DNA from: a phage
Reading direction: 5' to 3' (one strand)
DNA length: 64,000 bases
Sequence record: PV467749.1
Below are positions 31,093 through 62,369 of the stretch, piece after piece. Made by a program: the position numbers and the translations under genes. Below the pieces are notes generated by a model. It saw only the letters and a program-made list of their open reading frames with translations, searched no databases and had not been told where the DNA came from. Every line of letters starts with the position of its first letter. Position 1 is the stretch's first letter.

Positions 31093-31711
31093 TATTCCTA
31101 TGGAAACATCAATGACTGTACATGGCGTTGACTTCATCAACACCAGTCGAATTATACACGCTTCGCATGTCTAATTCGACGAAAGTACTATGATTTGTTT
31201 TAATTAATATTGACGGGGTTTGCTTGAGCATATTTCATCCCCCCGCAGGGGAAAGAACAAAAAAAGTTTGACGCTGGTGGCCTTCACATAGTTCATATCA
31301 CGAATTCTCTTACGAGGCGAAAGCGGGTTGCTCTGTTTCTCTCTATCGCGGTTCTTGTAGCAACGGTCGTCGGTCTTAAACATCCCGACACATAATACAA
31401 ATACCATATGACCAGTACTTGTATTTGATTTCACGAATTTTGGACGCAACTATATTGTATAAATTACGACCGCAAATTTCTCATGAAATCTCCCTTAGAT
31501 AATTGGTAAGGTGCGATCCTTATATGTCTATCGAGGAACTCTCTTTATCCTATTGGAGTTCTTTATACAGCCGCATTGCCGTGAGTGGTTCAAACTATGC
31601 CATCATCTAACGGGTTTCATTTGCTGTTCGTACTGAAAGGACTACTCATCTACCCTCTACTTTTCGAGTGGATTAGGCTTTAATCATTTCCATATGGAAC
31701 CTTTCAGGATT
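31093..31711. other. ORF-free, GC-enriched island (~620 bp): candidate structured ncRNA(s) or regulatory/origin region
   Basis: no ORF of 60 aa or more on either strand apart from an implausible 81-aa frame; visibly higher G+C than flanks; local hairpins (GTCGG..CCGAC; GTTGCT..AGCAAC); TATAAT near 31151; no tRNA T-loop motif found. Confidence 0.3.
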
Positions 31712-31745
31712 AAAAAAAGGCGACAACATATTCTGCTGTCACCTT
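31712..31745 (-). terminator. intrinsic terminator 3' of CDS 31774..32622
   Basis: minus-strand hairpin GGUGACAGCA-GAAUAU-GUUGUCGCC (10 bp with two G-U pairs) followed by U7. Confidence 0.6.
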
Positions 31746-31773
31746 ACATTATATCATAAACTTATGGTATGTC

Positions 31774-53282: not shown

Positions 53283-53638
53283 TATGTAATTCCTATATTG
53301 AATTTGTATTCTTGATTAATACTTACATTGGATGTATTCAAAGCAGCATACTCTTTCATTTCATTTTGTATTGTAATAACTTCTTCAAATGTACACAAGT
53401 ACTTCTTATCAAATACTAATGCAGCTTGGAATAGTTCAGCGGCATCCATTACTGTATAATCCGGCATATCTTGATGTGGATACTGTAATGAATCGTAATC
53501 AATAAATGTAAATTTACCCTGAGTGTAATGAATATACTCATTTGCACTGTGCATTAAATCACCTTTGTTTAAATTACAAAAGTACTGAAAACTGTTCTTA
53601 AAAGAATGTACTGATATTACAAAATCAAATTCCATCAC
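53282..53638 (-). CDS. array family A member (three-gene sub-block)
   Basis: 118 aa; core AAELFQAALVFDKKYL. Confidence 0.6.
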   Translation of the reverse strand: MMEFDFVISVHSFKNSFQYFCNLNKGDLMHSANEYIHYTQGKFTFIDYDSLQYPHQDMPDYTVMDAAELFQAALVFDKKYLCTFEEVITIQNEMKEYAALNTSNVSINQEYKFNIGIT

Positions 53639-54048
53639 TCTTCCCCTAGATTGAAATGATTACTAAAATTAGTTTCACCAGTTTTACACCATTTATCTAT
53701 ACATTCCCTGTGAATGCATTTAATTCTACGCTGGATTTCAACAATCTCTTCTAATGTACAGATGTACTTCTTGTCAAATACTAATGACTCCTGAAATAGT
53801 GCAGCATCATCCATTAAGGTATAGTCCAGCATATCGGTTGCTTTACAACTAAATCCAGTACCAAGATCCATTAAATAAAATTGTGAATTCCAGAACTTTA
53901 TAACCTTGCCCCTTGTGTAGTTTAAATCACCTTTGTACAAATTACAACACGTAATCAACTCACCCGTGTACATCCATGTCCCTATACAAAATTCATTATA
54001 TTTTATTTCCATAATAATCTCTACTGTAATTAATAAGGTAAACTCCAA
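53635..54048 (-). CDS. array family A member (three-gene sub-block)
   Basis: 137 aa; core DAALFQESLVFDKKYI. Confidence 0.6.
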   Translation of the reverse strand: MEFTLLITVEIIMEIKYNEFCIGTWMYTGELITCCNLYKGDLNYTRGKVIKFWNSQFYLMDLGTGFSCKATDMLDYTLMDDAALFQESLVFDKKYICTLEEIVEIQRRIKCIHRECIDKWCKTGETNFSNHFNLGEE

Positions 54049-54210
54049 TATAAGGAGAACGTTTGCGGGGGCGGGGTATTTTTTGTTTCAGGAAACATGA
54101 ACTGTACTCTGTGAACACATTTTAAAACTTTATATTAAACATATACCTTAACATGTTTTTCAGCGAAAATTTTTTTGACCCCCCCAGCGGCCTGTGAAAA
54201 CGAAACGTCT

Positions 54211-54426
54211 CTATTTATTCAGCCTAGAAATCTTGATTTCTTCAATCCTTTTCATTGCACAAAGCCTTCGACTCGTCTTCTCGTATATATTCAATACTCG
54301 TTGTACTGCATTATCTGCATCTGCAATCTGAACCAAATATGTATCCTTCAAAATCGAATCCATCATGTATTCAAAACCTTTCACACTATAGCAATATACC
54401 ACTTCCGGCTCTTCAAACGTAATCAT
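54211..54426 (-). CDS. small hypothetical protein (71 aa), unrelated to family A
   Basis: ORF in the island that interrupts the array. Confidence 0.45.
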   Translation of the reverse strand: MITFEEPEVVYCYSVKGFEYMMDSILKDTYLVQIADADNAVQRVLNIYEKTSRRLCAMKRIEEIKISRLNK

Positions 54427-54616
54427 AATTCCAATCCCCTATCCCATCTAACCTTCTAAGATATCTTGCGTAAATTATTTCGAAATATCTGTGCAACGAA
54501 ATTACGGATTGCTCATAATCATCATTCCTGTACATTGTGCATGTAAGAAAATCATTTAAACCGTAATCTAAACTGCACTTGAACTTCTCCTTTGCAACAT
54601 CTCTAAAATTATCCAT
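54413..54616 (-). CDS. small hypothetical protein (67 aa), unrelated to family A
   Basis: ORF in the island; ATG 54616..54614. Confidence 0.45.
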   Translation of the reverse strand: MDNFRDVAKEKFKCSLDYGLNDFLTCTMYRNDDYEQSVISLHRYFEIIYARYLRRLDGIGDWNYDYV

Positions 54617-54771
54617 AATATGTCCTCTGCACAGCGTAGGTGTACTGTGAACTCAGCACCGTTAATAGGTAATCTATGTTGTAAGCACGATTTCCTCGTT
54701 GACTAGCACGGCTAGAATAAAGAATATTATCCACATATGTATCGAACTGTTCTTCAAATAACTCTTTCATC
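54609..54771 (-). CDS. candidate unannotated small ORF (~53 aa), approximate coordinates
   Basis: MKELFEEQFDTYVDNILYSS...; start preceded by a tandem 10-mer (AAAGGGTGCT x2 on the minus strand) supplying an AGGG RBS; stop overlaps the next ATG; coordinates +/-2. Confidence 0.3.
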
Positions 54772-54779
54772 AGCACCCT

Positions 54780-55406
54780 TTAGCACCCTTTAACAACTTT
54801 TGAAATGTAATCTTCTAATGCACCAATGTTCTTTGTATTCGTTCGAACTAAAAGATAACTTAAATCCTCGAACTCCTGAACATAATGCTTAACAGCGTAC
54901 ATGCATCGTAATTCAAAATCTGTATGAACCGTTTTGTACTGAAATAACATCTCTTCTGAAGCCTCTAAAAGCTCTGTGGCTTGTTCTGTACTGAACTTAA
55001 AGGGATTCTGTACTCCTGAACTAAAACACTTTTGTTCGTTCGTCTGGACACCCTGTGATAGATATAATCCTGTGCTACCATCTTGTGTTGATATCGAATT
55101 GAAACCATTACTTGCAACCATTAAATCTGAACTCAATACAAATAATAATTTATCTTCCTTATGAATTAATAAATCTGACTTCAGGGATTTTATTCCTGTA
55201 CTGGTTATATCACCTATACTAAGATTGTCACTGAACTTCTCAGCGTTGTTCGCAATGCTCTGGACAAGATTTTTTAATCTCTTAATGGCACTTCTGTCTT
55301 TTTCTAATGTATCTAATAAACTCATTGAACTCATTGTACTTTCCTTACATATTTGTACCGAACAAAACGGAACTTTGAATGCCATTAATCGACACTTCAT
55401 GTACAT
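54780..55406 (-). CDS. array family A member
   Basis: 208 aa; core EEMLFQYKTV. Confidence 0.6.
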   Translation of the reverse strand: MYMKCRLMAFKVPFCSVQICKESTMSSMSLLDTLEKDRSAIKRLKNLVQSIANNAEKFSDNLSIGDITSTGIKSLKSDLLIHKEDKLLFVLSSDLMVASNGFNSISTQDGSTGLYLSQGVQTNEQKCFSSGVQNPFKFSTEQATELLEASEEMLFQYKTVHTDFELRCMYAVKHYVQEFEDLSYLLVRTNTKNIGALEDYISKVVKGC

Positions 55407-62089: not shown

Positions 62090-62153
62090 AATTTTTACCC
62101 CATGATTAACGTACAGGTACTATATCAGTAATGAAAAGTACTGTCAAGTACTG

Positions 62154-62369
62154 TCATTTGCATTTGGACTTTATTTGACACATCAACCCCCAAATTAAAT
62201 ATCGAACACTATCAGCTTGATAGTTTGTTCCTACTGTGTGTTTTAAGATTAACTCATCTTTCAGTACTGAACATTCTGCATTAGATATAGGAAGAGAATT
62301 AATTCTTTTAATTTCTGGTTGTAAAGTCCTGATAAGATTGGTGTAATCTTTGTATGATAATCTTTTCAT
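62154..62369 (-). CDS. family B small protein (divergent)
   Basis: 71 aa; HTVGTNYQADSVRYLIWGL. Confidence 0.45.
   Translation of the reverse strand: MKRLSYKDYTNLIRTLQPEIKRINSLPISNAECSVLKDELILKHTVGTNYQADSVRYLIWGLMCQIKSKCK

Follow-up and report, generated by a model that had tools for sequence, protein, structure and literature searches.

The DNA analyzed here is a stretch of 64,000 nucleotides (nt) from a phage (PV467749.1; hereafter the window), and the locus in question is the block that lies between two of its minus-strand genes, at 53635..54012 and 54780..55334. This block had been described in the initial annotation as an island interrupting an array of related genes, and either an insertion or recombination scar or a regulatory module was proposed for it. 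As interpreted here, the block would comprise two units: a trio of translationally coupled small orphan genes, designated open reading frames (ORFs) A, B and C, and, ahead of a sub-array of three phrog_15629 paralogues, a non-coding spacer with a conserved core and two highly variable G/C tracts. The spacer (54013..54210, minus strand; one copy per genome, Asteriusvirus only) is the main subject of this text, and is read, tentatively, as a leader acting in messenger RNA (mRNA).

The gene upstream of the block (54780..55334, minus strand; 184 amino acids (aa); phrog_30243) encodes a protein ending in ...KVVKGC, followed by a TAA stop at 54782-54780, and carries the sequence LFQYKTV, an instance of the FQ motif described below. 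The gene downstream (53635..54012, minus strand; 125 aa; phrog_15629) is the first of three tandem paralogues and has the spacer directly in front of it. All features listed for the block in the initial annotation were located within 1 nt of their positions, and both flanking genes exist, with the correction that their ends at 54048 and 55406 were over-extended: in the annotation of relatives the downstream gene starts at ATG 54012 rather than TTG 54048, and the upstream gene at ATG 55334 rather than 55406. Because relatives annotate the downstream gene from ATG 54012, the non-coding gap was set at 54013-54210 (198 nt). The two flanking genes belong to different families by both phmmer and PHROGs, and the block is therefore placed at a boundary between sub-arrays and not inside a uniform array.

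Two G/C tracts lie in the spacer, both read on the minus strand: a poly-G tract (54179..54185; G7 on the coding strand) and a C-rich tract (54065..54077; ACCCCGCCCCCGC on the coding strand). On the plus strand these appear as GACCCCCCCAGCGGCC at 54177-54192, with C7 at 54179-54185, and as GCGGGGGCGGGGT at 54065-54077. Chance expectations here and below were obtained from first-order Markov resamples of the window. Only three sites with at least 11 G/C in 12 positions occur in the 64 kb, two of which are these tracts; 0.47 were expected, a count of three was reached in 2% of resamples, and two such sites no more than 150 nt apart were seen in none of 150 resamples. The description of the tracts as unusual thus holds for two GC-rich sites so close together, which is rare, but not for run length, as a G or C run of at least 7 was present in 24% of resamples.

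Variable repeat copy number, which had been suggested for this block, was borne out as a difference between genomes: in the 28 genomes compared, the G run takes seven lengths from G4 to G10, at times interrupted as GGAG(n), and its length differs even among genomes with identical cores. The C tract takes ten sequence variants in the same 28 genomes, and G6 was found in two 121Q-like metagenome contigs. Pairwise identity is 0.73-0.74 for both tracts. In length and sequence, the two tracts are the fastest-changing positions of the locus. An adjacent A7 run is constant in 26 of 28 genomes, which makes plain homopolymer sequencing error an unlikely main cause of the tract variation. The tracts, which bracket most of the core, are retained as tracts while their length and sequence change faster than their surroundings.

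The AT-rich core between the tracts (54078..54178, minus strand; ~100 nt) shows the opposite behavior. It contains a 28-nt block (54150-54123, TAAGGTATATGTTTAATATAAAGTTTTA) that is invariant in 15 aligned genomes, and among spacer-bearing genomes its mean pairwise identity, 0.91, is higher than that of ORF C (0.81) or of the upstream gene (0.80). Relative to phage 121Q, 6 of the 101 nt of the core are substituted (0.062 per site). In the same comparison, ORFs A and C show a synonymous divergence (dS) of 0.49-0.50 and the downstream gene one of 0.32, and the rate of change in the core is thus 4-8 times lower than at most flanking synonymous sites. A core divergence this far below flanking dS shows that the spacer core is constrained, that is, under purifying selection.

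The spacer is present in 31 of 33 records, in one copy each; no further copy was found in the window or in other phage genera, and in IMG/VR only 121Q itself was recovered. In phage A4 both flanking genes differ, yet the element is retained, from the G run as far as the downstream ATG. In ph0011, the G run and core are replaced, the C tract is represented by the AT-rich sequence ACAATCAC, and an otherwise invariant leader block carries 2 substitutions; in this one case the tracts behave as a pair. The element is wholly absent from UE-S1, and in SD-1_S14 the core and the G run are deleted together with the terminal part of ORF C.

Known classes of signal were searched for in and around the spacer. 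No Rfam family matched the window at the gathering score, and lowering the threshold to E values of up to 10 for 53-56 kb returned chance-level matches only. The only repeat found in the spacer was a 10-mer pair spaced by 83 nt, with 90% identity, and there was no inverted repeat of at least 8 nt. An intrinsic terminator was rejected, as no terminator-like site was found in 54000-54300, the tracts are ~100 nt apart and no U run follows. Helical phasing of an ATGT repeat in the core was likewise rejected, one of the copies not being conserved in the 121Q clade. The proposal of a regulatory module is plausible for the 198-nt spacer alone, where the core is constrained, but no known signal class fits it.

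For the block as a whole, the proposal of an insertion or recombination scar did not stand up to comparison with relatives. The 3-kb neighborhood matched 37 phage records, all Asteriusvirus, at 78-98% identity; these are jumbo myoviruses of E. coli or Salmonella (PBECO4, 121Q, phAPEC6, fEgEco12 and others). When records covering at least 80% of its length were counted, the block proved to be conserved and syntenic in 30 of the 34 Asteriusvirus records that matched, at 84-98% identity; the exceptions are deletions or replacements. The block had been described as being of different character, but its composition is ordinary: GC content is 0.367 versus 0.334 for the window, at the 85th percentile of same-size segments (range 0.24-0.42), and codon usage points the same way, GC content at third codon positions being 0.35-0.39 in the ORFs versus 0.287 ± 0.061 (1-1.7 standard deviations above the mean). 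The 3-mer distance of the block falls at the 95th percentile, mostly owing to the G/C tracts. No signature of mobility was found: ARAGORN detected no tRNA in the window, no direct repeat flanks the block, and no Pfam, NCBIfam or PHROG function such as integrase or transposase was assigned to the block ORFs. Since the block is conserved and syntenic in relatives and has ordinary composition, the test that the initial annotation itself had set, the insertion reading was dropped; from these comparisons the block is judged to be an ancestral, vertically inherited part of the Asteriusvirus early region, and not an inserted island.

Two related ideas were considered and set aside. A spacer resembling a miniature inverted-repeat transposable element or an insertion sequence was not supported, as the spacer occupies one place per genome and has no other copy in the window and no duplication at its ends; the only candidate for a terminal inverted repeat was the G-rich, imperfect match of GCTGGGGGGGT to GCGGGGGCGGGGT, which is variable between genomes, and the repeat search found none. 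A genome terminus or packaging site was suggested by the Sharanji record, which begins ~500 nt away, but that start was judged to be arbitrary; most records begin 34-38 kb away from the block, which is left interior by the determined 21-kb terminal repeats of fEgEco12.

The small ORFs of the block, of which two or three had been noted, number three; they lie on the minus strand and overlap, with start/stop overlaps of 8 and 14 nt. ORF A (54609..54770, minus strand; phrog_29794) encodes 53 aa from ATG, or 55 aa from GTG 54776; ORF B (54413..54616, minus strand) is an orphan gene of 67 aa whose ATG overlaps the end of ORF A; and ORF C (54211..54426, minus strand) is an orphan gene of 71 aa. Their description as unrelated was upheld: in phmmer searches against all 136 minus-strand ORFs of the window each matched only itself, and none carries the FQ motif of the 33 array proteins. 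Each was found in 33 records at a single place per genome, none was found outside the genus among 50,697 phage records, and sequence searches of Pfam, NCBIfam, PHROGs and PDB assigned no function to any of them. ORFs A and B rank among the best-conserved stretches of the locus, with a pairwise nucleotide identity of 0.93 and a more variable third codon position. The ratio of non-synonymous to synonymous divergence (dN/dS) for ORF A, 0.15-0.54, indicates purifying selection on this gene; ORF B is the most conserved of the trio (protein identity of at least 95% in 25 of 33 records), and ORF C is fast-evolving, with dN/dS of 0.39-1.4 and indels that are mostly multiples of 3.

At the upstream junction, the perfect tandem 10-mer reported earlier was recovered as two copies of AGCACCCTTT on the plus strand (54772-54791), equivalent to two copies of AAAGGGTGCT on the coding strand; Tandem Repeats Finder placed it at 54772-54792, with 2.1 copies and a 100% match. 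Perfect tandem 10-mers are rare in such sequence, with 2 observed in the window versus 0.17 expected. Copy 1 forms the last codons and TAA stop of the upstream gene, and copy 2 the Shine-Dalgarno region of ORF A. AAAGGGTGCT occurs twice in the window, fEgEco12, vB_Ec-M-J and WPEC5. TH47 and Turkey3 are single-copy, reading ...GTT AAA GGG TGC TGATG..., with the TGA stop of the upstream gene overlapping the start of ORF A. The duplicated form reads GGG TGC TAA where the single-copy form reads GCTGATG, and in both the upstream protein ends in KGC*; as the second copy recreates a stop after ...KGC, and ORF A retains its own AAGGGTG Shine-Dalgarno context, both proteins are unaltered. Other lineages differ at the same place: CMSTMSU has three copies of a shifted 10-mer, likewise ending in KGC*; in the PBECO4 clade the junction spacer is longer and contains a tandem repeat of 7 nt (TGTATGA x2); and the 121Q clade has another short tandem variant at this junction of ORF A and the upstream gene. 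No other stretch of the locus is as poorly conserved as this junction (0.47 identity). The term scar is therefore fair for the 10-mer, as a lineage-specific indel at an indel-prone junction, but not for the rest of the block. We read the 10-mer, from the variants compared, as an ordinary, selectively neutral slippage or duplication polymorphism that uncouples an overlapping stop and start (TGATG).

The second perfect tandem 10-mer of the window (AAGTACTGTC, 2.1 copies, 62136-62156) overlaps the -35 region of a strong promoter (TTGACA-17-TATAGT at 62147); short duplications in this part of the window also fall within regulatory sites.

The wider setting of the locus is the early-gene region of an Asteriusvirus (a PBECO4/121Q-like jumbo coliphage). 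All long ORFs of the window are borne on the minus strand, and strong sigma-70-like promoter sites are distributed accordingly, the minus strand bearing 52 and the plus strand 5. TGATATAAT, the extended -10 sequence, is 4-fold enriched (13 in the window versus 3.4 expected), 12 of the 13 copies being on the minus strand. Neither strand of the window has the T4-type late promoter TATAAATA, for which 12.2 ± 3.6 occurrences were expected. Phages of the Asteriusvirus type encode a sigma factor of their own and are presumed to use the host RNA polymerase (PMC11895373, PMC7247149). On the strength of the strand-biased sigma-70 sites, the enrichment of TGATATAAT, the absence of TATAAATA and this presumed use of the host enzyme, the whole window looks like an early region transcribed by host polymerase that avoids late-promoter sequences.

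Proteins with the motif [FYWLM]FQ (in fuller form, [FYWLM]FQxx.[LIV]) are encoded by 33 of the 136 minus-strand ORFs, between ~35000 and 63100, with the motif positioned two-thirds along proteins of 100-210 aa. This set is the "family A" of the initial annotation. It is a very large, diverged paralogue superfamily with no function assigned; pairwise phmmer connects only small subsets of it, for example those at 54012, 53635, 53282 and 47702.

Two other intergenic arrangements were noted in the window. The segment 57653-57594 combines a compact terminator-like hairpin (GCCTGTATCGTAAGATATGGGC plus T7) with a strong promoter immediately after it, TTGACA-17-TACAAT with TG, an arrangement resembling the promoter/stem-loop cassettes of T4-type hyperplastic regions. 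At 31144-31773, ~630 nt lack a convincing ORF; an early promoter stands at the start of this segment (TGATATAAT at 31748-31756), followed immediately by a hairpin with T7 (GGTGACAGCAGAATATGTTGTCGCCTTTTTTT) and then by several hundred GC-richer bases, which include the third GC-rich site of the window, a local hairpin (CCCCTGCGGGGGG, ~31239-31251). No Rfam match was obtained for 31144-31773, which could be a non-coding RNA gene.

For the spacer, a rough probability of 40% is given to the reading that it is a cis-acting mRNA leader of the downstream gene sub-array with two competing folds. Because the spacer is without the early promoters that abound in this phage, we infer that it is probably read through from upstream promoters and would act in the mRNA. 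In the first fold, the G run would pair with the C tract, clamping the AU-rich core into a loop of ~100 nt; in the second, the core would pair with the leader (54016..54053, minus strand), just upstream of the downstream gene, and cover the ribosome-binding site of that gene. A change in tract length would tip the equilibrium towards one fold or the other, and would so alter translation or processing of the downstream sub-array.

The proposed pairing draws on complementarity between leader and core at three places: 54053-54044 with 54139-54130, 54040-54034 with 54150-54144, and 54026-54016, which covers the Shine-Dalgarno region, with 54171-54161. RNAalifold, applied to 15 relatives, paired three core segments with three leader segments. 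The core-leader duplex has a predicted energy of -19.9 kcal/mol, versus -10.1 ± 2.7 for shuffles (2 of 1000 as good), and the two longest invariant blocks contain its arms. Since base pairs between the G run and the C tract would cross the core-leader helices, the two predicted folds are mutually exclusive. The GC clamp was part of the minimum-energy fold in 13 of 15 relatives, and the energy gap to the alternative fold varied with the tract variant, from 0 to 16.5 kcal/mol.

Several results weigh against a leader of this kind. The tracts, whose capacity for structure had been put forward for checking, do pair in the prediction for those 13 relatives, but any G run pairs with any C tract, and such pairing is not diagnostic. 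The 27 proposed pairs showed no covariation, with 0 double changes; 24 are invariant and 3 have one-sided compatible changes. Folding energy of the whole spacer was no better than that of shuffles (z = 0.27 and 0.00 for the two strands), and an equally good duplex was obtained at 6.9% of window positions of the same geometry, the locus ranking 7th of 135 gene starts. Constraint on the core is also less clear relative to PBECO4, where core divergence (0.073) is about equal to ORF C dS (0.079), and part of the apparent constraint could be mosaic ancestry. Lastly, as UE-S1 and ph0011 are without the element and SD-1_S14 has half of it deleted, the element appears from these genomes to be dispensable for plaque growth, conserved yet non-essential.

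Among the alternatives, an unlikely one that nonetheless accounts for a core constrained without RNA structure signal is a site acting at the level of DNA, namely one for binding or replication, or a phage-specific promoter of a (middle) class not yet described, with the tracts as incidental boundaries. The sigma factor encoded by these phages (PMC11895373, PMC7247149) and the G-rich ends, which form the imperfect inverted repeat of GCTGGGGGGGT and GCGGGGGCGGGGT, are in keeping with a DNA-level site; the core motif, however, does not recur in the window and is found once per genome. Nor do the three promoter classes predicted for the related, Rak2-like phage CBB fit the spacer (RpoD-like; TGAAAC(G/A)-N17-TATAAT; late ATAAATA; PMC5259590). 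For the early class of the phage analyzed here (TTGACA-like -35 plus TGATATAAT, 16-18 nt), none of the 52 strong sites falls within 54030-54210, and TGATATAAT was not found in the spacer. For the middle class, TGAAACA is present at ~54089, but with no -10 at 17 nt. For the late class, the spacer has no ATAAATA-type match, and TATAAATA is absent from the window as described above.

It is quite unlikely that the spacer is functionless, a decaying remnant or recombination junction whose tracts are merely prone to slippage and sequencing error. UE-S1, ph0011 and SD-1_S14 do dispense with the element, the homology breakpoints of A4 and ph0011 lie at or beside the tracts, and some of the records with extreme tract lengths are flagged UNVERIFIED (CMSTMSU, TH47). 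A decaying remnant is, however, hard to square with a core that changes 5-8 times more slowly than flanking synonymous sites (121Q comparison) and includes the 28-nt invariant block, or with GC-rich tracts that persist genus-wide in an AT-rich genome beside a stable A7.

A sigma-70-type promoter with the poly-G run in its spacer is improbable. Here TT(G/C/T)ACA at 54198-54193 would serve as -35 and AAAAAT ending at 54169 as -10, and slippage of the G run would alter the -35/-10 spacing, switching the downstream sub-array in the manner of a contingency locus. A promoter scan does give TTCACA-18-AAAAAT on the correct strand with 9 of 12 matches; genomes of the PBECO4 and 121Q clades have TTGACA as the first hexamer, and TTNACA is kept in 27 of 28 element-bearing genomes, the exception being A4 through its differing upstream flank. 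AAAAAT retains two critical -10 positions, the A at -11 and the T at -7. Spacing equals 11 plus the number of G residues, which gives 16-18 nt for G5-G7 (15 of 28 genomes), but the other genomes stand at 14 or 19-21 nt, leaving half of the isolates with non-functional spacing. The match is, moreover, weak and not above chance (63 comparable sites in 10 kb versus 58.8 expected), it is without the extended -10 TGATATAAT typical of the early promoters of this phage, and neither the constraint on the ~100-nt core nor the C tract is explained by it. A stronger claim, that the poly-G run and its C-rich partner form a true contingency locus in a lytic jumbo phage, with G4-G10 slippage heritably switching the FQ-family sub-array, is decidedly improbable; the route could be altered promoter spacer length or the balance between the GC-clamped and ribosome-binding-site-covering mRNA folds. 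If it were true, populations would hold a standing mix of expression states for host-takeover or anti-defense genes.

Finally, the idea that the spacer is protein-coding, either as a small gene (annotated in relatives as 121Q gp364, G17_00561 and WPEC5_CDS0621) or by lengthening the N terminus of the downstream product, was rejected as most improbable. Several records do have small coding sequences (CDSs) or extended downstream CDSs there, and ATG 54098 opens a 22-codon ORF in the window, but the reading frame is inconsistent among relatives, the distance from that ATG to the leader being 0, 1 or 2 modulo 3 across genomes, so that the peptide differs or fuses, and a stop stands at codon 4 (MFP*) in four genomes.

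In records of Sharanji (gp001), SHEFM2K (M2K_0105), E9.1 and EC.P1, the downstream gene is extended by tens of codons through the spacer (54013-54098), because the length of the A run plus C tract puts an internal ATG in frame; in other records, separate ORFs of 30-46 codons are called at 54013-54098. These CDS calls and extensions look like annotation artifacts arising from the variable tracts. Frame-shifting tracts would explain the disagreement between GenBank annotations, in which spurious small CDSs or variable N-terminal extensions of the downstream gene appear.

Two consequences follow for the locus. A false lead is cleared, the block not being foreign DNA and the 10-mer being a harmless indel, and attention is moved to the spacer, a non-coding gap of a size seldom seen among the ~136 predicted genes of this 64-kb early region; there, a constrained sequence fits no known signal class and is flanked by the two most mutable sites of the locus. 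If tract length does tune the downstream paralogues, this would amount to repeat-mediated expression switching in a virulent phage, which to our knowledge is not well documented, and it would provide a handle on a large, uncharacterized early-gene superfamily.

Set beside known systems, the locus is an uncharacterized example of familiar things: orphan early genes, an indel at a gene junction, and an intergenic element under constraint that carries hypermutable simple repeats. In bacterial contingency loci, poly-G or poly-C runs lie in the promoter spacer (Neisseria porA and opc, Bordetella fim). The G4-G10 run resembles these in being far more variable in length than its surroundings, in its position between TTNACA and an A/T-rich hexamer, and in lying upstream of a gene array; it differs in that the promoter is a candidate only, with a weak -10, in belonging to a lytic jumbo phage, and in the second, C-rich variable tract ~100 nt away. 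The T4 genes e, soc and I-TevI are under transcript-dependent translational control, the ribosome-binding site being sequestered in a hairpin on the long read-through mRNA. Similarly, an upstream segment is predicted here to form base pairs with the leader of the following gene, its Shine-Dalgarno region included, in a polycistronic early region. Unlike in T4, no internal promoter was found for a transcript without the 5' arm, TATAAATA is absent, and the pairing spans ~80 nt and is AU-rich, weak, without covariation and unexceptional against the genomic background. The RNase III processing sites between cistrons of T7 early mRNA offer another parallel, as a conserved non-coding element between early cistrons with a predicted extended imperfect duplex, although the duplex here is long-range rather than a local hairpin. 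T4-type hyperplastic early regions, lastly, are characterized by promoter-early stem-loop (PeSL) cassettes and frequent small indels; the spacer is without a strong early promoter or compact stem-loop of that kind, but the region around it shares their dense small early genes, many strong sigma-70 promoters on one strand, gene content that varies among relatives, and indel-prone junctions.

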